The notes below the pieces were generated by a model. The model had not been told where the DNA came from, searched no databases, and worked only from the letters and a program-made list of their open reading frames with translations. Positions 859-25,831 of a stretch of 36,349 nt of DNA are shown here, one piece after another. Within the stretch, counting starts at the first letter, position 1. The number at the start of each line of letters is the position of its first letter. Both the position numbers and the translations under genes were made by a program. This stretch comes from Candidatus Krumholzibacteriia bacterium (GTDB taxonomy: Bacteria > Krumholzibacteriota > Krumholzibacteriia > LZORAL124-64-63): NCBI GenBank assembly GCA_014859985.1, contig JACZKN010000487.1, positions 1 through 36,349 of the forward strand. Reading direction: 5' to 3'.

Positions 859-986
859 TGGTGGGGCGGCGCCTGCAGGCGGCACCTGCCAGCCGGCCGA
901 AAATCCGCCCGCGCTTTACGACTGGAACGGTTTGAATTACCCTGTCCATTCCCTGCGCCCAGGTGATTCCCCCCGAAAGGTCCCCG

Positions 987-3620
987 ATGATCGGCAAGAG
1001 CCTCGCCCACTACGAGATCATCGACCTGCTGGGCAAAGGCGGCATGGGCGAGGTCTACCGCGCCCGCGACACCAAGCTCAAGCGCGACGTCGCGCTGAAG
1101 ATCCTTCCGCACCAGGTCTCGGGTGATCGCGAACGTGCCGCGCGCTTCGAACGCGAAGCCCACACCCTGGCCAGCCTCCAGCACGCGAACATCGCGTCGA
1201 TCTACGGCTACGAGGAAGTCGAGGGCGTGCGCTTCCTCGCCATGGAGCTCGTCGAAGGCGAGGACCTGGCCCAGCGCCTGAAGCGGGCTCCGCTGTCCGT
1301 CGACGAGGCGCTGCGGATCGGGCTGCAGGTCGCGATCGGCCTGGAAGCCGCGCACGAACGCAACATCGTGCACCGCGACCTGAAGCCGGCGAACGTGAAA
1401 GTCGATCCGCAGGGCGCCGTGAAGATTCTCGACTTCGGCCTGGCGCGCGCGGTGAGCGGGGAGTCCGACAGTCCGGGCGATCCCGCGCTGTCGCCCACGA
1501 TCACGGCGGCGATGACGCATGCCGGCATGATCCTCGGCACCGCCGCCTACATGAGTCCCGAACAGGCACGCGGCAAGTCGATCGACAAGCGTTCGGACAT
1601 CTGGTCCTTCGGCGTGATGCTGTACGAGATGCTCACCCGCGCGCAGCTCTACAGCGGCGAGACGGTCACCGACATCCTGGGCGCGATCGTCCACGGCCGG
1701 CCCCACCTCGATGCCCTGCCGAAGGACGTGCCGCCGGCGGTGCAGACGCTGCTGCGGCGTTGCCTGACGCCCGACGTGCACGAGCGGCTGCGCGATATCG
1801 GCGAGGCGCGGGTCGTGCTGGGCCGGCCCTACGATGTCCCGGCCGGCGATAATGCACCGGCCGCGACGAAGTCCAACCGATCGCTGATCGTGGTGAGTCT
1901 CGTCCTCCTGGCGACCGCCGGCGCGCTGGGCGCGAAGCTGCTGCTGACGCAGAAGCCCCCCGCGCCGATCGTGCAGGCGTCGATCGCCCTCCCACCGCAG
2001 CACACGCTCCTGACGACGGGTCCGCGCGGGGGTGCGCTGCGCGTCTCGCCCGACGGGCGCGCGCTCGCCTTCGTGGCACAGAAGGACGGCAAGCGTCAGA
2101 TCTGGGTCCGCCAGGTCGACCAGCGCGACGCCTATGCGGTGCAGGGAACCGAAGGCGGACACCGTCCCTTCTGGTCGCCCGACGGGCGCTCGCTCGCCTT
2201 CTTCGTCGAGGGTGCGCTGCGTCGGGTCGCGGTCAGCGGGGGCGCTTCGCTCACGATCGCAGCGGCGCCTGACGGTCGCGGCGGTGTGTGGCTCCCCAGC
2301 GGCGAGATCGTCTTCGCACCCAGCCCGGGATCGGCACTGGTTGCCGTGCCGGCAGGTGGCGGCCAGCCCCGCCAGGTCACGCAGATGGGACTGCGCAGCC
2401 ATCGCGAACCGCGGGGTCTGCCGCTTCCGGGACGTTTTTTGTTCCTCGAGGATCGCGGCGGTGGGGTGTGGTTCGCCTGCGTCGGCAATGTCGACGGTTC
2501 GGCGCCCGTCGAGATCGTCGGCACCGGAGGTGGTGTCGAGTACGCCGACGGGCGTCTTCTGTACCTCAAAGGGCGCACGCTGGTGGCGCAGCCCTTCGAC
2601 CTCAACGCCCTGAAGCTGGGCGGCGATCCCACCCCGCTCGCCGAGAACGTCATCCGTGACAGTTCCTACGGGATCGGCGCGTTCTCGGTCTCCGAATCGG
2701 GAGTGCTGTGCTACCAGTCGGGCACGGGCGCCGGCGCCCAGCTCGCGTGGTTCGATCGGGCGGGAACCGAGACCGCAACTCAGGGTGCGCGCGCGGATTT
2801 CACCGAGGCGACCTTGTCGCACGACGGCACGACGATCGCCGCCGTACTCGACGATCTCAACGGGCGGTCCGACATCTGGTTGATCGACGTCGCGCGCGAC
2901 ACCCGGCAGCGCTTCACGTTCACGTCCGACGACGCCTCGAAGCGCCGGTCCGAGGTCCACTGGGCACCGGACGGCAGCTTTCTCGTCTTCTCCGTCGAGG
3001 ACGAAGATGGCAACGGCATCTATTCCAAGCGGACCGACGGCAGTGTTGGCGAGACGCTTCTGCTCAAGGAGACCGGAATCAACCTGTGGCCCTACGACGT
3101 CTCCTCCGATGGCAAATGGCTCCTGATTGGTCGCGAGGACGAGGCCAGCAACGAGGACCTGTGGGTTCTCCCGCTGACGGGCGACGGCGAGGCCCGGCCC
3201 GTATTCGAGACACCGTTCGACGAGTGGCCCTGCGCCATGTCGCCGGACGGCCGCTGGATCGCCGTCGACTCCGACGAGACCGGACGCCGCGAAGTCTACG
3301 TGATCCCGTTTCCCGCCGGCGGCGGTCGCTGGCAGGTCTCACGTGCGGGAGGACGCTTTCCGCGCTGGAACGCCACGGGTACCGAACTCTTCTTCGCCGA
3401 CCCCGAAGGGTCGATCCAGGTCGTGCAGGTCGAAGCGAAGGACTCGGTCTTCCGCACCGGCGATCCGCAGCGGCTCTTCGAGGCCAACCTTGCCCAGAGC
3501 TCGTACAACGAGTTCGACTACGATCGGGTGAACGATCGTTTCCTCATCCTGAAGCGTACCGTTCTGGACGCGCCGATCGCGTTGTACTTGAATTGGAGGG
3601 ACGCGTTGGAGGTGCGGTGA
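987..3620 (+). CDS. Ser/Thr protein kinase receptor: N-terminal Hanks-type kinase, single TM helix, C-terminal TolB-like (PD40/WD40-like) beta-propeller
   Basis: ORF-track frame 963..3620. Kinase motifs: GKGGMGEVYRA, VALK, HRDLKPANV, DFGLA, MSPEQ. TM segment: SLIVVSLVLLATAGALGAKLLL. Repeated PD40-type motifs: VSPDGRALAF, WSPDGRSLAFF, WAPDGSFLVF, VSSDGKWLL, MSPDGRWIAV. I prefer ATG 987 (MIGKSLAHYEI, preceded by GAAAGG at 6 nt) over the GTG at 963. Confidence 0.9.
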   Translation: MIGKSLAHYEIIDLLGKGGMGEVYRARDTKLKRDVALKILPHQVSGDRERAARFEREAHTLASLQHANIASIYGYEEVEGVRFLAMELVEGEDLAQRLKRAPLSVDEALRIGLQVAIGLEAAHERNIVHRDLKPANVKVDPQGAVKILDFGLARAVSGESDSPGDPALSPTITAAMTHAGMILGTAAYMSPEQARGKSIDKRSDIWSFGVMLYEMLTRAQLYSGETVTDILGAIVHGRPHLDALPKDVPPAVQTLLRRCLTPDVHERLRDIGEARVVLGRPYDVPAGDNAPAATKSNRSLIVVSLVLLATAGALGAKLLLTQKPPAPIVQASIALPPQHTLLTTGPRGGALRVSPDGRALAFVAQKDGKRQIWVRQVDQRDAYAVQGTEGGHRPFWSPDGRSLAFFVEGALRRVAVSGGASLTIAAAPDGRGGVWLPSGEIVFAPSPGSALVAVPAGGGQPRQVTQMGLRSHREPRGLPLPGRFLFLEDRGGGVWFACVGNVDGSAPVEIVGTGGGVEYADGRLLYLKGRTLVAQPFDLNALKLGGDPTPLAENVIRDSSYGIGAFSVSESGVLCYQSGTGAGAQLAWFDRAGTETATQGARADFTEATLSHDGTTIAAVLDDLNGRSDIWLIDVARDTRQRFTFTSDDASKRRSEVHWAPDGSFLVFSVEDEDGNGIYSKRTDGSVGETLLLKETGINLWPYDVSSDGKWLLIGREDEASNEDLWVLPLTGDGEARPVFETPFDEWPCAMSPDGRWIAVDSDETGRREVYVIPFPAGGGRWQVSRAGGRFPRWNATGTELFFADPEGSIQVVQVEAKDSVFRTGDPQRLFEANLAQSSYNEFDYDRVNDRFLILKRTVLDAPIALYLNWRDALEVR

Positions 3621-15151: not shown

Positions 15152-17389
15152 ATGGGGTACCAAGCGATGGACAACGGCTCGAAACCTTCACATGCGAACT
15201 CCGGTCGCAGACGCGCCGTGGCCTTTTGCGCGGTCTTGGTTTGGGCGATGCAGGGCGGGACAGCCGGCGGGCAATGCATCCGCTACGAGGACTACCTGCA
15301 CGGCATCTGCACGGTGGACATACCTGGCGTCGCCCATGACATCGCCCTCGTCGGCGCCTATGCCTACATCGCAGCCGAGGATTTCGGTTTGCAGGTGATC
15401 GACATTGCCGCGCCAGGGAACCCGCGGATCGCCGGCAGCGTGGGCACGCCGGAGTGGGTCAGGGAAGTGGCCGTTGCGGGGGACCATGCCTTTGTCTGCT
15501 ACTCGAGCTACCCGTCGACAGGCGGGGTATATGTGGTCGATATCACGAGTCCATCAAGCCCGCAGATCGTCGGTAGCCTGGCCGTCACCGGGCCGGTTCT
15601 CGGCGTGGCCGCATCTGGCACCCATGTCTTCCTCGCGGCCGGCGATGGGCTCCAGGTTGTCGACGTGGGCGATCCTGGCAGCCCCCGCCTGGTGGGCGGT
15701 TTGGTGTGCGTGGGCGAAGCCCGGGATGTCGCGGTCTCCGGCGACTATGCCTATCTCATCGATCAGTATGGCCTTGAGGTCATCGATATCACTAGTCCGG
15801 CGAGCCCGATCAGCGTGGCCAGGACCGGCGAGCCCGCGGCCCCACGCCGTGTTGCGGTCGCGGGCGGCTTCGCCTACGTCACGGATGCCCATGGTCTCCA
15901 GGTGATCGACATCAGCGACGCCGGGAGCCCCCATCGCGTGGGAAGCGTGGTGACACCGGCCGGCGCAGGAACCGTGGTCGTTGCGGGCGGACGAGCCTAT
16001 GTGACAGGCAGTTCGTGCATCCAGATCATCGACGTCTCCATCCCCGAAAGTCCCACGTATCTGGACAGCGCCGACTCCTGGGCCGGCGTCAACGGCGTCG
16101 CGGTCTCCGGCACCCAAGCCTATGTGACGCTAACGGTTGAATGGATGGGCTCCGCAATCGGCCGCCTACAGGTCATTGATGTCGCCAGCGCCCAAAGTCC
16201 TCCCTTGGCGGGCCACGTAGCCACGCCGGGGTTTGCGCAGGATGTGGTCGTTTCCAACCATTACGCGTATATCGCCAACGGTTCTTCCGGCCTTCAGGTG
16301 GCTGATATCGCCGACGCCGCGAATCCCATGATCGTCGGCAGTGTTGCCACCGATGATTCCGCCATCGGTCTTGCGCTGGCCGAGCCCTATGCCTACGTCG
16401 CCGATGCCAACGGCGGGCTGAAGGCGATCGATATTGCGAATCCTTCGGCTCCCAGGATAGTGGCCTCGGGTGGTGCTCCATTCGCACAGGACGTTGCCGT
16501 CGCAGGCAGCATCGCCTACGTGGCCGGTGCCAACATACAGATGAGCGGCCTGCTCGTCCTCGATATCAGCGAACCGCTCGCTCCCCGACGCATCGGCAGC
16601 GTGGACACGCCGGGCGGCTACTGCGGCGTCGCGGTCTCGGGCAGCACCGTCTATCTGGCCGACGGGTACTTCGGGCTCCAGGTCATCGATGTCTCCAATC
16701 CCGGGAGTCCCGCGATCGTCGGGACGGTGGACACGCCCGGCAACGCCAGGGATGTCGCGTTCTCCGGCGGTTACGTGTTCCTGGCGGACGGTGAATCTGG
16801 CCTCCAGGTCGTGGATATCAAAGACGCACGGAACCCGGGAATCGTCGGCAGCCTGGCCACCTGGGACAACGCTGAAGGAATTGTCGTCAGCGGTGACATC
16901 GCCTATGTCGCGATTGACCGCGCCGGGCTGCAGGTGATTGACATTTCCGATCCCCGGAATCCCCGGGCCGTGGGAGACGCGGGAGTCGAGGGCTACTCCC
17001 TTGGGCTCGCCGTGTCCGGTGCAAACGTCTTTGTCGCGGCGAACGGCCTGCAGATCCTGCCGGGGCAATGCAGCGATTCCAGTTCCGAGGATCCGGAGAC
17101 CCCGGTTGCGGGCATCCGGTTGCTCGCCGTCTATCCGAATCCCTTCAACCCTGGCACGACGATAGCCTACGATGCCGTCGGCGGTACCCATGTCCGCCTG
17201 GCGATATTCGACATTGCCGGTCGACTGGTACGAGACCTGGTGGACGAACGACCGGCCGTGACTGGACGCTACGAATCGACCTGGAACGGCAGGGATTCAC
17301 GCGGCATGACGGCAGCGGCCGGCGTCTATTTCTGCCGCCTCACCGCCGGTCCCTACAGCGAGACAAGGAGAATGGTGCTGGTAAAGTGA
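15152..17389 (+). CDS. Secreted LVIVD-repeat beta-propeller protein with a C-terminal FlgD-Ig/T9SS-like sorting domain (paralog 1)
   Basis: About 14 tandem ~42-45 aa units of the form GLQVIDI(S/A)xPxxPxxVGxxxTPGxAxxVAVSGxYAYVA. C-terminal domain: VYPNPFNPGTTIAYD...LAIFDIAGRLVRDLV...WNGRDSRG...GVYFCRL...RMVLVK. A signal-like N-terminus (AVAFCAVLVWAMQG) is followed by GGQCIRYEDYLH. An alternative start is at 15167. Confidence 0.88.
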   Translation: MGYQAMDNGSKPSHANSGRRRAVAFCAVLVWAMQGGTAGGQCIRYEDYLHGICTVDIPGVAHDIALVGAYAYIAAEDFGLQVIDIAAPGNPRIAGSVGTPEWVREVAVAGDHAFVCYSSYPSTGGVYVVDITSPSSPQIVGSLAVTGPVLGVAASGTHVFLAAGDGLQVVDVGDPGSPRLVGGLVCVGEARDVAVSGDYAYLIDQYGLEVIDITSPASPISVARTGEPAAPRRVAVAGGFAYVTDAHGLQVIDISDAGSPHRVGSVVTPAGAGTVVVAGGRAYVTGSSCIQIIDVSIPESPTYLDSADSWAGVNGVAVSGTQAYVTLTVEWMGSAIGRLQVIDVASAQSPPLAGHVATPGFAQDVVVSNHYAYIANGSSGLQVADIADAANPMIVGSVATDDSAIGLALAEPYAYVADANGGLKAIDIANPSAPRIVASGGAPFAQDVAVAGSIAYVAGANIQMSGLLVLDISEPLAPRRIGSVDTPGGYCGVAVSGSTVYLADGYFGLQVIDVSNPGSPAIVGTVDTPGNARDVAFSGGYVFLADGESGLQVVDIKDARNPGIVGSLATWDNAEGIVVSGDIAYVAIDRAGLQVIDISDPRNPRAVGDAGVEGYSLGLAVSGANVFVAANGLQILPGQCSDSSSEDPETPVAGIRLLAVYPNPFNPGTTIAYDAVGGTHVRLAIFDIAGRLVRDLVDERPAVTGRYESTWNGRDSRGMTAAAGVYFCRLTAGPYSETRRMVLVK

Positions 17390-18594: not shown

Positions 18595-18625
18595 TTGACC
18601 TGGCATGCGCAAAATATGGTATAGT
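18595..18625 (+). promoter_or_regulatory. Strong sigma-70-type promoter with an extended -10 (TTGACC-N19-TGgTATAGT)
   Basis: TTGACC at 18595-18600, TG at 18617-18618, TATAGT at 18620-18625, in an AT-rich island. It overlaps the ORF-track ATG at 18605. This argues that the true start of the downstream gene is 18680 (TAAGGAG 7 nt upstream) or 18728. Confidence 0.6.
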
Positions 18626-18679
18626 CAAGGAAACGAGCGTGTTCCGCTGCCGCAGCCCTTTCCCTTAAGGAGCGGGGAC

Positions 18680-21600
18680 ATGTTCGTATGTGCTTGGGCC
18701 ACCGGGAGCCCTGAAAGGTCGATTCCTATGCGCAAGCGCCGTTGCCTGGCGTGCTTGTCATGGGCGCTGGCCGTCGTCGCCGGGTGGGCGATCGCGACCG
18801 AGCCCGCGCCGGCGGCCGCCCAATGCGCCAACTACGAGAACTACATGCACTGGATCCAGGATATCGACGCGCGCGGAGCCTCGGTCCGCGGCATCGAGGT
18901 CGCCGGCACGACGGCGTATACCGTCGCTGCGTTCGACAACTATTCGGGCCTGCTGACGGCCTATGACATCTCCAACCCGGGCAAGGCGAGCCGTCTTGGC
19001 GATCTGGCCTTGACCGGGAGCTATTGGTTCGGACGAGGTGATGTCGAAGGATCGTATCTCTTCGTGGTTTCGGACAATCCCCGGCAGATGCACACGATCG
19101 ACGTTTCCGATCCGGCGCATCCCGCGGAGATCGCGGCCGTGAACCTGGTCTTCGCGCCGTTGGACATCGCGGTTTCGGGTTCGCTTGCCCTCATCGTGAC
19201 CTCCATGGGCCAGCTCCATGTCTTCGACGTCTCCAATCCCAGCGCCCCGGTGTCCGTCAGCATCGTGAATGTCCCCTCTAGCGGCCGCAAAGTGGAGATC
19301 GCAGGGGACTATGCGTACGTCTATTGCGAAGACGGCGGATTGCGGATCTACAACATCGCCGATCCGGCGAATCTCCTGGCTGCCGGTAGCGTGAGCCTGT
19401 TCGACGGCCACCCCGCCCATGAGTCGTCGAGGGACTTCGCCCTGGCCGGCGACCGCATCTATGCTCCGGTCATGGAGTCGGGGAAGGTCCACATGGTCGA
19501 TGTCCTGGATCCGGCGAACCCACAGCTGATCGCCAGCCTGGATCTTGCCAACGGGGGATTCATCGATGTCAGCGGTGACCTCGCCTACGTTTCGGATCCG
19601 ACTGGGATGTCGGTCATCGACGTTTCGAGTCCGACGGCCCTCGAGTTCCTGGGCTGGGTCCCCTATGCCAGCTCGGGCTCCGGATGGCCGGCCGTGGACG
19701 TCGTGGCGGCCGGGTCGTTCCTCTACCTGGCCTTCGGACGAACCGGCGACAACACGCTGGACTCGGAGGTCTTCTCCCTCGGCTCACCCTGCGACCGGGG
19801 CGTCGTCGGCAGCCTGGACACGCCGGGCAGCGCCGAAGCGGTCGTCATCGACGGCAACTACGCCTATGTCGCCGACGGCCCCGGCGGGGTGCGGATCATC
19901 GACGTGACCGATCCCCTCGTCCCGGTGGAGGTCGGGTCCTACGACACTCCCGGTTACGCCACGAAGCTCGTCGTGTCGGGCGGATTCGCCTTTGTTGCCG
20001 ACGGCGAACAGGGGTTGCAGATTCTCGACGTCGTCGATCCCTTGAATCCCGTCTTCAAGGGTGCGACGGGGACCGCCCACGACGCCGTTGCCCTCGATAT
20101 CGCCGATTCCCTGGTCTACATCGCCGACAGCGATTCCGGTTTGACCGTAGTCAACGCGGCGGACCTCGCGGCCCCTGTCGTCATCGCCCGCGTCGACACC
20201 GGAGGCAGCACCCGGGACGTCGCCGTGGCGGGCGAGTACGCGTTTCTCGCCGACGGCTCGGGCGGGCTCCGCACGGTGAACCGGAACGTGGAGGAGCCCT
20301 CCGATCCGTGGATCATCGGCGGCGTGAAGTCCTTCAGCGTGAACGATGCCAGGGGCGTGATGGTCGACGGGACCCTGGCCTATGTCGCCGACGCGGATTC
20401 CGGACTCTACATCATCGACGTCTTCGACCCCGCGACGCCGATTCCCCTGGGCGAAGCCGCCACCCAGAGCGCGGCCAGTGACGTTTTCGTGTCCGATTCC
20501 TTCGCGTACGTCGCCGACGGCGGGTCCGGCCTGAAGCTGTTCAACGTCCAGACGCCCGCAGAGCCCTACATCGCAGCCAATCTGGCGGTGCCGTCGGTGA
20601 CCAGGGGTGTTTTCGTCACCCAGTACTACACGTTCATAGCCGCCGCGGATTCGGGGCTGCAGATCGTCCCGTCGCAGTGTGCGTTCGCCGAGTACCCGAC
20701 GGCGTTCTTCAATATGAGTTCCGCGACCGCCTTCAGGCCGGCCGCCATCGCCTTCTTCGACAACTCCACGGGATACATCACGGGATACGACTGGGATTTC
20801 GGCGACGGCACGGCGCACAGCACGGCGGTCAGCCCGGTCCACCTGTACGATGTCCCGGGCGACTATCTCGTGACCCTGACGGTTTCCAGCCCGACCACGT
20901 CCGACAGCATGACACGATCACTCACGATACTGACCGAGGCGCCCTACATAACGGCCGTGACGGACGTCCCGGCGGACCAGGGCGGGTTCGTCTACCTGGA
21001 GTTCCACAAGAGCTTCTACGACGACACGCTGCCGAGCGACGCCGGCCCCGACAAGGCCGCAGAGATCTACACGATCCAGCGGCAGGATGACGGACGTTGG
21101 GTTACCGTCGCGACCTCGGGCGCCTACGGGGACCAGTACTACTCGGTCCTGGCCGGTACCCAGGGCGACGGCGCGGTGGACTGGACCACCGTATTCCGGG
21201 TCATCGCGCACATGGATGAGGGGATCTGGATCGGTCCCGAGGCCAGCGGTTTCAGCGAGGACAACATCGCTCCGGCGGCCCCGACCGATCTCGCCTGGCA
21301 GGAGGACGGCATGCTGACCTGGTCGCCGGTCGCAGCCTACGATCTTGCCTACTACAAGGTCTGCACGGGGCCGAACGGATCCTTTGCGGAATCCACGCCG
21401 TTCGGCACCACCGTCGAAACCCGGATGGACCTCTCCAGCTCGACCGATAGCTGGGTATTCGTCGTCGCGGTGGACGATGCCGACCTTGAGAGTCTCCCCT
21501 CCACGCCCGTGGCCGTTTCCGGCGTGCCGGATGCCGGCAACGCGCTTCGGCTCTTTCCCGCGGTCCCCAATCCGTTCAACCCCAGCACGACCATCCGGTT

Positions 21601-21817
21601 CGTCCTGCCGGAGGAATGCAGGGCGCGCCTGGCGATCTACGACGTCAGCGGTCGTCTGGTCCGGGTCCTGGTTGACCGGTACATGGCGCCCGGGATCCAC
21701 GGAGCGGTCTGGCTGGGAGAGGATCAGGCGGGTCGAGCCGTGGCCTCGGGGACCTATTTCGGCCGGCTGGATGCGGCGGGGAAGGTCCTGACCGGACGCA
21801 TGACACTCGTAAAATGA
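18680..21817 (+). CDS. Secreted LVIVD-repeat protein with a PKD domain and a C-terminal FlgD-Ig/T9SS-like sorting domain (paralog 2)
   Basis: AAGGAG at 18667-18672 lies 7 nt before ATG 18680. Signal peptide: MRKRRCLACLSWALAVVAGWAIA (alternative start 18728), then AAAQCANYENYMH. LVIVD-type units: GVRIIDVTDPLVPVEVG, GLQILDVVDPLNP, GLYIIDVFDPATP, GLKLFNVQTPAEP. PKD motif: YDWDFGDGTAHS...VTLTVSS. C-terminal domain: VPNPFNPSTTIRF...LAIYDVSGRLVRVLV...GTYFGRL...RMTLVK. Confidence 0.88.
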   Translation: MFVCAWATGSPERSIPMRKRRCLACLSWALAVVAGWAIATEPAPAAAQCANYENYMHWIQDIDARGASVRGIEVAGTTAYTVAAFDNYSGLLTAYDISNPGKASRLGDLALTGSYWFGRGDVEGSYLFVVSDNPRQMHTIDVSDPAHPAEIAAVNLVFAPLDIAVSGSLALIVTSMGQLHVFDVSNPSAPVSVSIVNVPSSGRKVEIAGDYAYVYCEDGGLRIYNIADPANLLAAGSVSLFDGHPAHESSRDFALAGDRIYAPVMESGKVHMVDVLDPANPQLIASLDLANGGFIDVSGDLAYVSDPTGMSVIDVSSPTALEFLGWVPYASSGSGWPAVDVVAAGSFLYLAFGRTGDNTLDSEVFSLGSPCDRGVVGSLDTPGSAEAVVIDGNYAYVADGPGGVRIIDVTDPLVPVEVGSYDTPGYATKLVVSGGFAFVADGEQGLQILDVVDPLNPVFKGATGTAHDAVALDIADSLVYIADSDSGLTVVNAADLAAPVVIARVDTGGSTRDVAVAGEYAFLADGSGGLRTVNRNVEEPSDPWIIGGVKSFSVNDARGVMVDGTLAYVADADSGLYIIDVFDPATPIPLGEAATQSAASDVFVSDSFAYVADGGSGLKLFNVQTPAEPYIAANLAVPSVTRGVFVTQYYTFIAAADSGLQIVPSQCAFAEYPTAFFNMSSATAFRPAAIAFFDNSTGYITGYDWDFGDGTAHSTAVSPVHLYDVPGDYLVTLTVSSPTTSDSMTRSLTILTEAPYITAVTDVPADQGGFVYLEFHKSFYDDTLPSDAGPDKAAEIYTIQRQDDGRWVTVATSGAYGDQYYSVLAGTQGDGAVDWTTVFRVIAHMDEGIWIGPEASGFSEDNIAPAAPTDLAWQEDGMLTWSPVAAYDLAYYKVCTGPNGSFAESTPFGTTVETRMDLSSSTDSWVFVVAVDDADLESLPSTPVAVSGVPDAGNALRLFPAVPNPFNPSTTIRFVLPEECRARLAIYDVSGRLVRVLVDRYMAPGIHGAVWLGEDQAGRAVASGTYFGRLDAAGKVLTGRMTLVK

Positions 21818-21847: not shown

Positions 21848-24121
21848 GTGAGCCAATCCGAAGCCGGCCCCTATGTCTTCCTCAGCTACTCCAGGGGCGA
21901 TCGCGAATTCGCCGGGCGGCTGGCGCAGGCCCTGCAGAACCAGGGTCTGCACGTCTGGTGGGATGCTGAGATCCCCGCGGGGGTCCATTATCCCAAGTAC
22001 ATCGAAGACGGCCTGAAATCCGCAGCATGCGTGGTCGTGCTCTGGTCGGCCCACAGCGCCGCCTCGCGCTGGGTGCGCAACGAGGCGGATTGGGGTGCCG
22101 AGAACGCCACGCTTGTGCCCCTGCTGATCGACGACATCGAGATCCCGTGGGAGTTCCGCAACTTCCAGACTCTCGACCTGTCGCACTGGGATGGCAAGCC
22201 CGACGACCCCGCCTTCCGGAAACTGCTGCAGGGACTGCAAGGCCGATTGGGGGCGTCCCGGGCGGTCCCCGGCGCACCGGAAGGGCCTGTCGGCGCTCCC
22301 TCTGTCCGGCAAGGGGCCTTTTCCCGAAGCCGCGACCGGAGCGCGACGGGGGTGGCCCGGAAGCGGTGGTTCGTCCCCGTCGGGCTCCTGTTGGCGGCGG
22401 CCCTGGGCATCGTGCTGTACTCCTTGTCGCCCTTGCGCCCCCCGCGGGCGCTCGAACCGGCCGAGGAGACGATCTCCTTCAAGCCCCTGACCGGCGACGG
22501 GCTGACCCATTCCTCGGCGATCTCGCCGGACGGCAAGTACCTGGCCTACACCCGCATCGAGGCGGGCAGGACCGGCCTGCGCCTCAAGCAGATCGAAACG
22601 GGAAGCGAAAGCACCCTCGTGCAGGGCGGTGCCCGCGGGATCAAGTCGCCGATCTTCTCGCCGGACGGTGTGTACGTCTTCTTCGTGATGAACGCCGGGA
22701 CTCCGGAAGCCCCGGACGGGGCGGTCTCCAATCTCTACAGGATCTCCATGCTCGGGGGCGAGCCCAGGATCGTCACCAGCGGGGTGGTCGACCGCAGGTT
22801 CGACTGTTCGCCCGACGGGCGCCGACTGGTCTTCAAGAGGATCGTCGGGGATTCGACCCGGATCATGGTCGTCGGTACCGACGGAACGGGGGAGCGGCAG
22901 ATCGCGGCCGGGCGGCACGAGCAATCGATGCGCCACTGTATTGCCTGGTCGGCTGACGGCGCCGAGGTTCTCACGGCCAGGCGCGACTCGATCTCGGGGT
23001 TCCTCGATCTGATCGCCTTGCCCGTTGCCGGCGGTACTCCGCGGATCGTGGGAGGGGACCCGTGGCAGACCGTCCTGGACATCCGCCCCCTGGTGGACGG
23101 ATCCGGGCTGCTCGTCCTGGGCAAGCCGGTGCCGGCGGTCGGCTTGAACATCAACCTGTGGCTGCTGCGGACGGGTGCGGAGAATTTCACGGCGCTGACC
23201 AACGACGTGACGATGTACTACCAGGTCACCTCCGACAGGTCGTGCCGCAACCTGGCTCTCAACTACTACGGCGCCAAGAGGACGCTGCGGATCATCGAGA
23301 TGGGGCCTGGGGGGCGCGTCCGGGACATCTCGACCGACCTGGTCGCCAACGGACGGGTGCTCTGGGCCGGGGATGACCGGTTGCTGGTCAACCAGAGCGT
23401 CGGCAGCAGGATCGGCCTTGTGCTTGTGGACGTCCGCGACGGCACGATCAGGAATGTCCCGACGGACGTCGAGTACGTCGCGGAGATGGATCTGTCCACC
23501 GATCGCCGCGTCATGGCCTTCCGCTCGTACCTGGGCGGCGGCAACGCCATCTGGCTGGCCAATGGTGACGGGAGCTCTCCCCGGAACCTGACGGAAAGCG
23601 GGGGAGACGAGATCAATCCCCAGCTCGCTCCCGACGGCCGGTGGCTCGTCTATTCCCGCCGCGACACCCCCGCGAAGCCGTGGTACATCTGGAAGAGATC
23701 CCTCGTCGACGGCTCAGCGTCGCCGCTTCTGGACACGCCAGGCACGGGGCCCAGGATCTCGCCGGACGGGACCCGTCTGGTGGCGGTGTTCAGGGATCCG
23801 ACAACGGGGGGCTCCCGGCTGGCCTTGGCGTCCACGGCGGGGGGCGAACTCCAGCCGGTGACCGTGCCGGACGACCACGATCTGTTGTGCTGGAATCCCG
23901 ATGGATCCGGATTCACCAGTTCGAGCAGGGCGGGGGGCCGCCTGGTGATCTGGGACCTGCCGCTCAGCGGCGGGGCGCCGAGACAACTGGCGGAGTTTCC
24001 TGCCAACCTGGAGAAGATCACGGACGCCGCGTGGAGCCCCGACGGCGGGTCCCTGGCTGTCTGCCTGGAGGTTGCGGCGTACGACGCGCTCCTGTTGCAG
24101 CGCTCGGGCGGCGCACGCTAG
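21848..24121 (+). CDS. TIR-domain protein with a single TM helix and a C-terminal TolB-like (PD40) beta-propeller
   Basis: GTG start with GGGGAG 7 nt upstream, 30 nt after the LVIVD gene. TIR_2-type N-terminus: YVFLSYSRGDREFAGRLAQALQNQGLHVWWDAEI...CVVVLWSAHSAASRWVRNEADW, with putative catalytic Glu79 in WVRNE (nt 22082-22084). TM helix: WFVPVGLLLAAALGIVLYSL (nt ~22367-22426). PD40-type motifs: ISPDGKYLAY, FSPDGVYVFF, CSPDGRRLVF, WSADGAEV, LAPDGRWLVYS, ISPDGTRLVAV, WNPDGSGF, WSPDGGSLAV. Confidence 0.88.
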   Translation: MSQSEAGPYVFLSYSRGDREFAGRLAQALQNQGLHVWWDAEIPAGVHYPKYIEDGLKSAACVVVLWSAHSAASRWVRNEADWGAENATLVPLLIDDIEIPWEFRNFQTLDLSHWDGKPDDPAFRKLLQGLQGRLGASRAVPGAPEGPVGAPSVRQGAFSRSRDRSATGVARKRWFVPVGLLLAAALGIVLYSLSPLRPPRALEPAEETISFKPLTGDGLTHSSAISPDGKYLAYTRIEAGRTGLRLKQIETGSESTLVQGGARGIKSPIFSPDGVYVFFVMNAGTPEAPDGAVSNLYRISMLGGEPRIVTSGVVDRRFDCSPDGRRLVFKRIVGDSTRIMVVGTDGTGERQIAAGRHEQSMRHCIAWSADGAEVLTARRDSISGFLDLIALPVAGGTPRIVGGDPWQTVLDIRPLVDGSGLLVLGKPVPAVGLNINLWLLRTGAENFTALTNDVTMYYQVTSDRSCRNLALNYYGAKRTLRIIEMGPGGRVRDISTDLVANGRVLWAGDDRLLVNQSVGSRIGLVLVDVRDGTIRNVPTDVEYVAEMDLSTDRRVMAFRSYLGGGNAIWLANGDGSSPRNLTESGGDEINPQLAPDGRWLVYSRRDTPAKPWYIWKRSLVDGSASPLLDTPGTGPRISPDGTRLVAVFRDPTTGGSRLALASTAGGELQPVTVPDDHDLLCWNPDGSGFTSSSRAGGRLVIWDLPLSGGAPRQLAEFPANLEKITDAAWSPDGGSLAVCLEVAAYDALLLQRSGGAR

Positions 24122-24154: not shown

Positions 24155-25831
24155 ATGAATCTCGTACGGGCGAAAGGTGTAGACCGCATGGCCATGCCCA
24201 ACGGTTTGAGAATCGGGGTGACCGGTCACCGCAGGCTGGCCCATTGCGACCAGACGGCAGCAGCGGTCCGTTCCGTCCTCGCGGAGATCATCGGAGGGGA
24301 TATGCGGTCGTCCGCGGCTGCTCCGGAAACGGGCGCTCCCGGCGTTCTGGTAGCCGTATCCCCGCTGGCCGAAGGTGCCGACCGGCTGGTGGCCCGGGAG
24401 ATCCTTCGCCGCCCCGGCGGCCGGCTCCAGGCCGTCCTGCCCCTGCCCGCCGAGGAGTATGCCAGGGACTTCCCGACCGAGGAGTCGCGGCGGGAGTTCG
24501 CCGCGCTCCTGGGCGCCGCGGAAGAGACGTTCACCGTGGCGGACCAGGCCACCCGCGGCGAGGCCTACCGTCTCGTGGGGCGGGAAGTCGTGGACCGCTG
24601 CGATCTTCTCATCGCCATCTGGGACGGAGACCCTGCGCGGGGTAAAGGCGGCACTGCCGAGACCGTCGCCTACGCCCGCAGCAGGAACAAACCCATCTAT
24701 CTGATCGACGGCGAGAGTCCGACCAGGATCACCCGGGAAGGGTTTGTTGCGGACCGGGATTCCACCGGAGGCGAGGGCCTGGCAACAGGGCCGGCTCCGC
24801 GGCCGCCCTCGGCCCCGCTCGACGGACTGAACAACCTGGGTGACCTGGACCGCGCTCTGGAGGAATGCAAGGGTTCCGGAGCCGGGGAGGACGAGGAGGG
24901 CGCGGGGCGGGCCCTGACCCGCAGGCTCCAGCAGGTCATTGCCCATTTCGGTCCCGCGTACCACGAAGCGGGCGCGCGTGCCGAGAGGGCCCAGAACACC
25001 TACCGCCAGACCTCCAAGGCCGTCTACATCCTGGCCACCCTGGCGGTGCTGATCGTGGCCGCGCAATCGATCTTCGGGCTTTCCCACTGGATCATCGCCG
25101 GGGAATTCGGCGCCATCGCAGTCATCCTGTTGATGACCAAGCTGGGCAATCGGCGGGGCTGGCACATGTTATGGCTGGAGAACCGTCTTGAGGCCGAGTG
25201 GTTGCGCCACGGCATCTTCGTGGCCTTCCTCAGCGGCCAGACCACTCCCGGGATCGACCGCCACTGGGCGTGCCGTTGGGTCGCGAGATCGGACGGGGTG
25301 GCCAAGGTCAAACAGGTCTGGAACGAGCTTCCCCACCTGGGAGCGCCCCCGGAGGCTGGCCTGGGCATCCTCAAGGCTTTCATGAGGAGTGCCTGGCTCG
25401 AGGAGCAGCGGGACTACCATGCGCGGAAGGCCGCCCACGAGGTCGCCAAGCATCACCGCATCGAGCGTGCCGGTGAACTGGCGTTCTGGCTGACGTTTGT
25501 CGCCGCCGCCCTGCATCTGGTCCCCCATTCGATCTACCACCATTTCCACCTGCCGGACAAGCCCATCATCAGGGTATTGACGATCCTGGCCATCGGCCTG
25601 CCGGCGCTGGGCGCGGCCCTGACCGGCCTGCGCGCTCATTTCGAGTACAGGAAGATCGCCGCCCGGTCGGCCATGATGGCCGAACATCTGGAGATCCTGA
25701 TCGGGGACCTGGCCGGCGTCCGGACGGTCACGCAGCTGGGTGAGCTGGTGAAGGAGACCGAGACCCTGATGCTCCAGGAGAACTCGGACTGGTACTTCAC
25801 CATCGGCCTGCACGAACTGGAAAAGGGGTAG
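24155..25831 (+). CDS. SLOG-like (LOG/DprA-type Rossmannoid) N-terminal domain fused to two 2-TM SLATT/DUF4231-like modules
   Basis: Lies 33 nt after the TIR gene. N-terminus: LRIGVTGHRRL...VLVAVSPLAEGADRLVA...LQAVLPLP...YRLVGREVVDRCDLLIAIWDGDPARGKGGTAETVAYAR..KPIYLI (aa ~17-190). Module 1, aa ~262-355: YHEAGARAERAQNTYRQTSKAVYILATLAVLIVAAQ / IIAGEFGAIAVILLMTKL. Module 2, aa ~405-520: EEQRDYHARKAAHEVAKHHRIERAGELAFWLTFVAAALHLV / VLTILAIGLPALGAALTGLRAHFEYRKIAARSAMMAEHLE. Alternative starts at 24188 and 24194. Confidence 0.8.
   Translation: MNLVRAKGVDRMAMPNGLRIGVTGHRRLAHCDQTAAAVRSVLAEIIGGDMRSSAAAPETGAPGVLVAVSPLAEGADRLVAREILRRPGGRLQAVLPLPAEEYARDFPTEESRREFAALLGAAEETFTVADQATRGEAYRLVGREVVDRCDLLIAIWDGDPARGKGGTAETVAYARSRNKPIYLIDGESPTRITREGFVADRDSTGGEGLATGPAPRPPSAPLDGLNNLGDLDRALEECKGSGAGEDEEGAGRALTRRLQQVIAHFGPAYHEAGARAERAQNTYRQTSKAVYILATLAVLIVAAQSIFGLSHWIIAGEFGAIAVILLMTKLGNRRGWHMLWLENRLEAEWLRHGIFVAFLSGQTTPGIDRHWACRWVARSDGVAKVKQVWNELPHLGAPPEAGLGILKAFMRSAWLEEQRDYHARKAAHEVAKHHRIERAGELAFWLTFVAAALHLVPHSIYHHFHLPDKPIIRVLTILAIGLPALGAALTGLRAHFEYRKIAARSAMMAEHLEILIGDLAGVRTVTQLGELVKETETLMLQENSDWYFTIGLHELEKG

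Follow-up and report, generated by a model that had tools for sequence, protein, structure and literature searches.

An open reading frame (ORF) at positions 24155..25831 of a 36,349-nucleotide (nt) stretch of DNA from Candidatus Krumholzibacteriia bacterium (contig JACZKN010000487.1; the whole stretch is hereafter called the window) encodes a protein of 558 amino acids (aa) in which a predicted SLOG domain, a linker and two membrane modules of the SLATT clan, with four transmembrane (TM) helices in all, follow one another. In this study we propose, by analogy with known systems and with a probability of roughly 0.6 that covers the whole chain of claims, that this SLOG-4TM protein would act as the membrane-damaging effector in a Thoeris-like TIR signalling module made up of two genes. 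Within that chain, our confidence is higher for a functional coupling to TIR and for the SLOG domain being the receiver, and lower for a lethal pore and for an anti-phage role. As judged from sequence, the combination of SLOG and SLATT modules fits a ligand-receiving domain with a toxic output, and both the SLOG ligand loops and the polar or charged residues of the membrane modules are conserved, which we count as support for the effector model. A previous reading made from the letters of this DNA alone (hereafter, the sequence-only reading) had described a SLOG-like sensor and two 2-TM SLATT/DUF4231 modules in a single ORF, and this layout was borne out by Pfam and NCBIfam models, predicted fold and hhalign. 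That reading did not include the conserved adjacent TIR gene, which is the most informative functional evidence. The coordinates of the main features are provided in Table 1.

Table 1. Features of the SLOG-4TM gene and its TIR partner in the window
Feature	Residues	Position (nt)	Strand	Basis
SLOG-linker-2xSLATT (4TM) putative effector gene	558 aa	24155..25831	+	ORF and guanine plus cytosine content at third codon positions (GC3) of 0.84
Predicted YpsA-clade SLOG domain	aa 16-195	24200..24739	+	AlphaFold2 (AF2) fold, Foldseek, hhalign, invariant columns
Disordered Gly/Pro/Glu-rich linker	aa 196-228	24740..24838	+	Predicted local distance difference test (pLDDT) <50 at aa 200-222
Membrane module 1, DUF4231/SLATT_3-like	aa 245-360	24887..25234	+	Pfam/NCBIfam, hydropathy, AF2 helices, conservation
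Membrane module 2, SLATT_1	aa 400-551	25352..25807	+	Pfam/NCBIfam, hydropathy, AF2 helices, conservation
Partner gene, TIR + 1 TM + PD40/TolB-type beta-propeller	757 aa	21848..24121	+	Pfam, NCBIfam, TM prediction

Linkage With TIR Genes

The partner gene ends 33 nt ahead of the effector ORF. Its product carries a TIR domain at aa 10-127 (Pfam TIR_2, 1.8e-25), in which the catalytic Glu is E79 (nt 22082-22084, in WVRNE), followed by a single strong TM helix at aa 174-193 (nt 22367-22426) with RKR on its N-terminal side and by a propeller (Pfam PD40, 1e-20; NCBIfam TolB propeller, 1.3e-24). Because this TM helix is the only one, the propeller is predicted to be extracytoplasmic, across the membrane from the TIR domain, which uses NAD+ in the cytoplasm. 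When compared with the ThcB4 model of type III Thoeris (NF058526), the partner protein reached 21.7 bits, below the cutoff of 220.

A TIR gene was adjacent in all four of the first long-contig homologues (P0005, P0006, P0038, and P0063; 30-51% identical), and the gene pair ran convergently or in the same direction, in the latter case with the TIR gene downstream or, with an overlap, upstream. A locus survey covered 71 species-representative genomes with a full-length member, and a jackhmmer TIR profile was run on all fetched loci. In 40 of the 71 loci a TIR ORF was located at 650 bp or less, and in a further 11 at 6 kb or less, giving 51 in total. The 40 adjacent genes were found upstream on the same strand (18), downstream on the same strand (11), divergent (nine) or convergent (two), and every one of the 68 distinct partner TIR domains had the catalytic Glu. 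The linkage of effector and TIR genes is far above chance.

With respect to the products of the 40 adjacent genes, 22 consisted of TIR, one TM helix and a C-terminal domain, four of TIR with a C-terminal 2-TM hairpin, and the remaining 14 were large proteins with no predicted TM helix. The domains following the TM helix included periplasmic binding protein, WD40 propellers, CARDB and PDZ. At one metagenomic locus (P0057, JGI 3300075153), a single SLOG-4TM gene is followed by three TIR genes, with CARDB, PEGA and CarboxypepD_reg domains, and by a RyR protein; this locus resembles a series of diversified TIR receptors with one common effector.

The loci devoid of TIR genes often have other large neighbours, such as DUF4062-NB-ARC/AAA-TPR proteins, WD40 giants and AAA/STAND-RyR proteins. 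In three loci in which no TIR gene was found (L030, L034, and L124), the neighbours often start with DUF4062, a domain regarded as TIR/DRHyd-related, to which NB-ARC, NACHT or AAA_16 and TPR repeats are fused. A profile of the RyR region revealed a 600-930-aa protein made of an AAA/STAND NTPase and a C-terminal RyR domain within 6 kb in 19 of the 71 full-length loci, so that 40 loci had TIR only, 11 had TIR and RyR, eight had RyR only and 12 had neither. These AAA/STAND-RyR proteins are also encoded next to SLOG genes that stand alone, whether or not a TIR gene is present, and the same profile found no RyR ORF in the window. The loci with RyR include L009, L010, L016, L020, L025, L028, L033, L035, L038, L042-L045, L061, L066, L074, L078-L080, L083, and L086. 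The presence of RyR domains beside TIR genes of the cyclic ADP-ribose (cADPR) type is a curious echo of animal cADPR/RyR biology. At some loci the surroundings were clearly mobile or defensive (type I restriction-modification with integrases; Fic, AbiEii and IS21; XcyI restriction-modification with an integrase and STAND NTPases), while other loci, the window included, had no such surroundings.

The SLOG Sensor Domain

The N-terminal domain was confirmed, at the level of sequence profiles and predicted fold, as a SLOG domain of the YpsA clade. The AF2 model of the 558-aa protein (pLDDT, 87.9; predicted template modelling score, 0.69) contains in this part strands alternating with helices, consistent with a Rossmann-like fold. 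Among PDB entries, the best Foldseek match of the predicted fold was B. subtilis YpsA (2nx2; E 7.7e-5, TM score 0.70), and other top matches were DprA (4ljk) and the SLOG domain of ThsA with 3'cADPR (7uxs; prob 1.0, TM score 0.40). The best viral fold matches were phage DprA-like and cpYpsA SLOG proteins, with TM scores up to 0.85. The link to solved structures was made through the predicted fold and through a phage YpsA protein because PDB searches with the full-length profile, the single SLOG domain and a SLOG-only profile returned nothing significant. The phage protein (L095) is a clear Pfam YpsA member (9.7e-19), and hhalign aligned the family SLOG profile to it over 147 columns with a probability of 98.9% (E 3e-17). 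The direct match of the 558-aa protein to Pfam cpYpsA was weak (E 0.066).

The family alignment revealed the invariant or near-invariant motifs G21xTGHR26, A72-E-G-A-D-R77, W156-D-G and G163xGGT167, together with a further motif stretch, C149D..W156DG. The GxD/E signature, which is the predicted substrate-binding motif of the YpsA clade (PMC6459960), is contained here in A72-R77, with G74-A-D76 invariant, as are TGHR and GGT. Given that the invariant residues are located on the ligand loops, they provide a third line of evidence for the SLOG identity.

No full-length member was found on viral contigs (IMG/VR, L088-L121). The relatives present there were stand-alone SLOG proteins with 24-37% identity over aa 18-192, and the 4-TM part was never seen. 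These phage proteins could act as signal sponges or mimics.

Linker and Membrane Modules

The sequence-only reading had also placed a Gly/Pro/Glu-rich linker at aa ~195-255. A linker of this composition is indeed present, but it was drawn too long: it ends at about aa 228, and aa 229-288 are helical, as part of the segment comprising aa 229-307 that is helical in the AF2 model. The aa 195-245 interval that holds the linker varies from 36 to 54 residues in the homologues.

A 19-residue hydropathy scan predicted four TM helices that form two tight hairpins. Hairpin 1 comprises aa 289-307 and 309-327, and hairpin 2 comprises aa 439-460 and 471-489. Each hairpin is preceded by an amphipathic charged helix, YHEAGARAERAQNTYRQ (aa 268-284) and RDYHARKAAHEVAKHHRIER (aa 419-438), respectively. 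Both of these helices had been pointed out in the sequence-only reading, and the predicted TM helices fall inside the two nucleotide ranges that it had assigned to the hairpins.

Module 2 matched Pfam SLATT_1 (PF18181) at aa 415-546 with an E-value of 1.4e-6 and 28.8 bits, above the cutoff of 26.3, over model positions 6-122 of 122, and its score for NCBIfam SLATT_1 (NF033634; E 4.7e-10, 39.5 bits) was slightly below the cutoff of 41. Module 1 matched Pfam DUF4231 (PF14015) at aa 276-352 (E 1.6e-4), its 22.5 bits being slightly below the cutoff of 24.7, and NCBIfam SLATT_3 at aa 267-349 (E 0.048). Among 87 aligned full-length relatives, SLATT_1 was matched in 84, and DUF4231 and SLATT_3 were matched at E<0.01 in 59 and 34, with best E-values of 5e-8 and 9e-8, respectively. 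A Caballeronia member described below scored 30.9 bits for DUF4231, above the cutoff. The DUF4231 character of module 1 is thus supported by sequence models at the family level and is borderline for the window sequence alone. Wherever positions were inspected, the order of the modules was constant, with DUF4231/SLATT_3 on hairpin 1 and SLATT_1 on hairpin 2.

Conservation in module 1 was centred on E317, which is invariant and located in the middle of TM2 (nt 25103-25105), and on the next helix, where R344 and R351 are invariant and E348 is near-invariant. In module 2, Q418 and W546 were invariant and H454, P483 and R504 near-invariant. According to the AF2 model, module 1 consists of a long helix (aa 245-307) that runs from the cytoplasm into the membrane, with TM1 at its C-terminal end, a returning TM2 and a juxtamembrane helix. 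Module 2 is modelled with a long helix (aa 400-455) also running from the cytoplasm into the membrane (TM3), a returning TM4 and two C-terminal cytoplasmic helices. This modelled long-helix geometry would suit the relay of a cytoplasmic conformational change into the bilayer.

The alignment of module 1 with module 2 by hhalign gave a probability of 39% (E 3e-4) over 37 columns comprising the pre-TM helix and TM1, which rules out a recent internal duplication of the hairpins. The two modules, each with its own invariant residues, appear from these profiles to be anciently diverged relatives of the SLATT clan, and the description of the effector module as duplicated in the sequence-only reading was overstated. 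No solved structure in the PDB resembled the membrane part in Foldseek searches. The possibility that the TM modules belong to an unrelated transporter family, which the sequence-only reading had named as grounds for its refutation, was rejected: their matches are to the SLATT clan, and the ABC-transporter fold matches obtained with Foldseek were insignificant (prob <0.5, TM score <0.15).

Size and Distribution of the Family

A word-indexed protein search with the 558-aa query returned more than 838 matches, and nearly all of the top 120 were 520-590 aa long with about 97% coverage. In an exhaustive search of 1.84 billion cluster representatives (clusters at 50% identity), 679 were found at E<=1e-30, 4080 at <=1e-10 and 7037 at <=1e-3, and a scan of one genome per species yielded at least 526 confirmed relatives. 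These were distributed among Chloroflexota (SAR202, Dehalococcoidia), Acidobacteriota, Actinomycetota, Gemmatimonadota, Desulfobacterota, Nitrospirota, Ignavibacteriota, Planctomycetota and Proteobacteria. SLOG-linker-4TM is the standard, invariant architecture of a very large family, and the tandem arrangement, which had been taken as unusual when only the sequence was considered, is standard in this family of 679 clusters (at E<=1e-30) and at least 526 species genomes. In the database names returned by these searches, the members are mostly hypothetical proteins, occasionally SLATT or DUF4231 domain-containing proteins and also "phage-like protein YoqJ," and there is no dedicated Pfam, NCBIfam or PADLOC model for the SLOG-4TM family.

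Some variants were also found. Proteins of about 350 aa (P0226, P0229, P0286, P0287, P0295, P0301, and P0317) contain the tandem DUF4231/SLATT_3 and SLATT_1 without SLOG and, therefore, the double hairpin travels as a unit. Others, of 700-805 aa (P0018, P0238, P0279, and P0302), bear two tandem SLOG domains before the 4-TM unit, the second one with degenerate motifs. TIR-SLOG-4TM fusions were considered as a possible Rosetta stone and rejected, as the additional domain of the 700-800-aa variants is this second SLOG and not TIR. In addition, stand-alone SLOG proteins exist that are 44-52% identical to the SLOG domain of the window.

The tblastn matches on plasmids each covered 37% of the query or less, corresponding to the SLOG part. 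Despite its short tblastn match, one of them (L122) is a full-length member, with 27% identity and an E-value of 4e-26 on direct comparison. It is encoded by plasmid pSBC2-4 of Caballeronia sp. SBC2 (NZ_CP049320.1, 26196-27929; WP_165106806.1, "DUF4231 domain-containing protein"), and the next genes encode a TIR protein and a WD40 protein. This plasmid-borne example from a cultured organism offers a practical experimental starting point. A match on a Streptomyces plasmid was set aside, since it corresponds to an unrelated-looking stand-alone SLOG context.

Gene Start and Genomic Context in the Window

The G+C content of the three codon positions of the effector ORF (0.70, 0.49, and 0.84) is of the coding type, in a window of about 69% G+C. 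The true start is probably M12 (ATG at 24188), as suggested by homologue alignments that begin at aa 13-14 and by the purine-rich AAAGGTG upstream. The stored automatic gene call (P0001) is 480 aa long and starts about 78 codons after the ORF start (window 24155-24391), with the loss of the first SLOG strands. The sensor domain may thus be systematically hidden in some members by annotation pipelines.

Two genes for LVIVD-repeat beta-propellers, of which one carries PKD domains and the other has a FlgD-Ig-like end, are located at 15152-17389 (+) and 18605-21817 (+). They lie directly upstream of the TIR gene on the same strand, the second ending 31 nt before it, and the pair is not kept next to the homologues in the four long-contig loci inspected. 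At 963-3620 (+), a Ser/Thr protein kinase (Pkinase, 6e-51) is fused to a PD40 beta-propeller region in a layout like that of the TIR protein, and the C-terminal regions of the two proteins are merely 25-29% identical.

Comparison With Known Systems

SLATT and SLOG were defined by Burroughs et al. (2015), and SLOG-SLATT effectors beside TIR genes were predicted computationally in that year, according to papers that cite this work. Pfam describes SLATT as "SMODS and SLOG-associating 2TM effector domain," and it is predicted to be a nucleotide-responsive pore-former (PMC7159879, PMC9503650). The closest published description is found in a preprint of December 2025 (bioRxiv 10.64898/2025.12.03.692087), which lists "SLOG and 4TM" beside TIR, with no type number, among 29 putative Thoeris types. 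That class shares with the present family a SLOG domain and four TM helices beside TIR, and its examples belong to Actinomycetota and Nitrospirota, both of them phyla in which the family reported here occurs as well. In a comparison made by TIR sequences alone, the published TIR domains matched the partner TIRs weakly (E ~1e-4 to 1e-5). The TIR protein of Ca. Nitrospira nitrosa was absent from the protein database, its 59%-identical relative had no SLOG-4TM neighbour, and a search seeded with an Actinoplanes member did not return Streptomyces sp. GKU 895, the source of the other published operon. The "SLOG and 4TM" description fits this family, and identity at the sequence level could not be confirmed. 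In its available sections, the preprint is silent on the tandem SLATT nature and on the ectodomain-bearing TIR partners.

Type I Thoeris (ThsB with the SIR2-SLOG protein ThsA) resembles the module proposed here in having a TIR partner and a signal received by SLOG. It differs in that ThsA kills by a SIR2 NADase and not by a membrane module, and the SLOG domain of our family belongs to the YpsA clade and matches that of ThsA weakly (TM score 0.40). ThsB proteins are usually small and soluble. The cADPR isomer made by TIR in type I is bound by the ThsA SLOG domain (3'cADPR in PDB 7uxs), cADPR activates a SLATT effector in type VII, and histidine-ADP-ribose (His-ADPR) activates a Macro-TM effector in type II (10.64898/2025.12.03.692087). 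Type VII (ThsB with ThsH) is similar in that TIR is paired with a SLATT membrane effector that is predicted, in the same preprint, to oligomerize on nucleotide binding. In contrast, ThsH is annotated there as SLATT alone, with predicted ligand pockets between SLATT protomers, whereas here each chain has SLOG and two distinct SLATT modules.

B. subtilis YpsA and phage YoqJ (2nx2) have in common with the sensor the TGHR, GxD/E and WDG...GGT motifs, and they are linked to it at the level of sequence profiles. YpsA, however, is a stand-alone soluble protein implicated in cell division and oxidative stress, with neither membrane part nor TIR partner (PMC6459960). The SLATT effectors of cyclic-oligonucleotide-based antiphage signalling systems (CBASS) and of reverse-transcriptase systems (DRT10/UG17) also use a 2-TM SLATT as the membrane-acting toxic output of nucleotide or nucleic-acid sensing. 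Their generators are a CD-NTase and a reverse transcriptase, and they have one SLATT module, as far as described in the literature examined.

Proposed Mechanism and Alternative Explanations

According to the model that we favour, the activated TIR protein would turn NAD+ into an ADP-ribose-derived nucleotide, such as a cADPR isomer, which would then be bound by the SLOG pocket formed by the GxTGHR, AEGAD and GxGGT loops. Binding may be relayed along the long helices that enter the membrane as TM1 and TM3, upon which the 4-TM units would oligomerize or rearrange and the inner membrane would become leaky. Oligomerization seems likelier than a monomeric pore, such as the pseudo-dimeric pore within one chain that the sequence-only reading had suggested, because there are four TM helices per chain, and E317, invariant and in the middle of the membrane, may be a lining or gating residue. 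The end result would be growth arrest or cell death, most plausibly as abortive infection.

Several observations weigh against this model. In 20 of the 71 loci no TIR gene was found within 6 kb, and a TIR protein with an ectodomain is unlike the sensor expected for intracellular phage components. The window is not a recognizable defence island, the neighbours being LVIVD/PKD surface proteins, the kinase-PD40 protein, BrkB and a spermidine-synthase-like protein, and no PADLOC model matches the effector. It must also be considered that the preprint saw no defence in E. coli with either of its two "SLOG and 4TM" operons, one from Streptomyces sp. GKU 895 and the other from Ca. Nitrospira nitrosa (10.64898/2025.12.03.692087), each operon having been assayed once, in a heterologous host, and its membership in this family not being confirmed by sequence.

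One alternative to a suicide defence system is a physiological transmembrane pathway. The TIR ectodomain would respond to a cue from the envelope or from outside the cell, TIR would make a second messenger, and the SLOG-4TM protein would be a ligand-gated ion channel or regulator that reversibly adjusts membrane potential or ion flux. The adjacent TIR partners are mostly membrane proteins (26/40), 22 of which consist of TIR, one TM helix and a C-terminal domain, and the C-terminal domains seen are typical of periplasmic or surface proteins (PD40 propeller, periplasmic binding protein, CARDB, PDZ, PEGA, CarboxypepD_reg). The occurrence in the window of a Ser/Thr kinase with a layout resembling that of the TIR protein points in the same direction, as do the housekeeping or surface-protein genes that surround the window locus and several others, and an invariant mid-membrane Glu would fit ion selectivity. 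Nevertheless, we regard this explanation as unlikely, given that the SLATT domains characterized so far are toxic effectors in CBASS, Thoeris VII and reverse-transcriptase systems, that mobile or defence contexts surround some loci, and that several diversified TIR genes per effector resemble an immune-receptor repertoire.

Two further alternatives were considered. The SLOG domain might be an enzyme and not a sensor, a nucleotide-processing hydrolase of the LOG/DprA type by which the signal is made, matured or destroyed, with the 4-TM part mainly anchoring it in the membrane beside the TIR protein. The GGT(A)E loop is presumably similar to the catalytic loop of LOG, position E169 is conserved as E or D in 78 of the 87 members, and the invariant H25, R26, E73, D76 and R77 could be catalytic. 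Moreover, SLOG members include enzymes, and the YpsA clade has been discussed in terms of "signal-generation or sensing" (PMC6459960). An anchor, however, would not need membrane modules conserved as strongly as SLOG and with invariant polar residues, the 4-TM unit is found also without SLOG, and in the single solved case of a TIR partner the SLOG domain, that of ThsA, is a ligand sensor, all of which makes an enzymatic role quite improbable. We give slightly less credit still to a reversed polarity, with TIR as an NAD+-depleting killer and the SLOG-4TM protein as an upstream or independent sensor or regulator. It is true that numerous bacterial TIR domains act as effectors, and the preprint notes that TIR may be the NADase effector in unverified types (10.64898/2025.12.03.692087). 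Yet a nucleotide-binding SLOG fused to SLATT fits the design of a receiver with its effector, and the large sensor-type domains (propellers, TPR, STAND) are found on the TIR protein and not on the SLOG protein.

We also tentatively consider, as a possibility well short of even odds, a receptor-type pathway in which a TIR domain, kept at the cytoplasmic side of the membrane by a single TM helix and controlled by a variable extracytoplasmic sensor, would signal by a diffusible nucleotide to a SLOG-gated 4-TM effector. The sensors of such a pathway, held with the same reserve, might be a PD40/WD40 propeller, a periplasmic binding protein, CARDB, PEGA or PDZ, sometimes with several receptors per effector, and the recurrent AAA/STAND-RyR protein would provide a third input, either as an alternative or in addition. 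If true, this would represent a Toll-like-receptor-style topology in bacteria (ectodomain, TM helix, TIR), able to detect extracytoplasmic events, for example phage adsorption, damage to the envelope or the presence of neighbouring cells.

Implications

The protein reported here is a member of a computationally predicted kind and not a categorically new architecture. In the sources examined, three traits seem to be under-described: the conservation, as one unit, of two tandem SLATT modules that are not identical, the YpsA-clade identity of the sensor, and the receptor-like topology that predominates among the TIR partners. The architecture is common, and its meaning derives from the TIR neighbour. 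Should the proposed mechanism be true, a major and environmentally dominant Thoeris-like type would be added, with a dedicated soluble SLOG receptor of the YpsA clade whose ligand could reveal a new TIR product, and the TIR proteins with extracytoplasmic sensors would bear on how and where bacterial TIRs sense threat.

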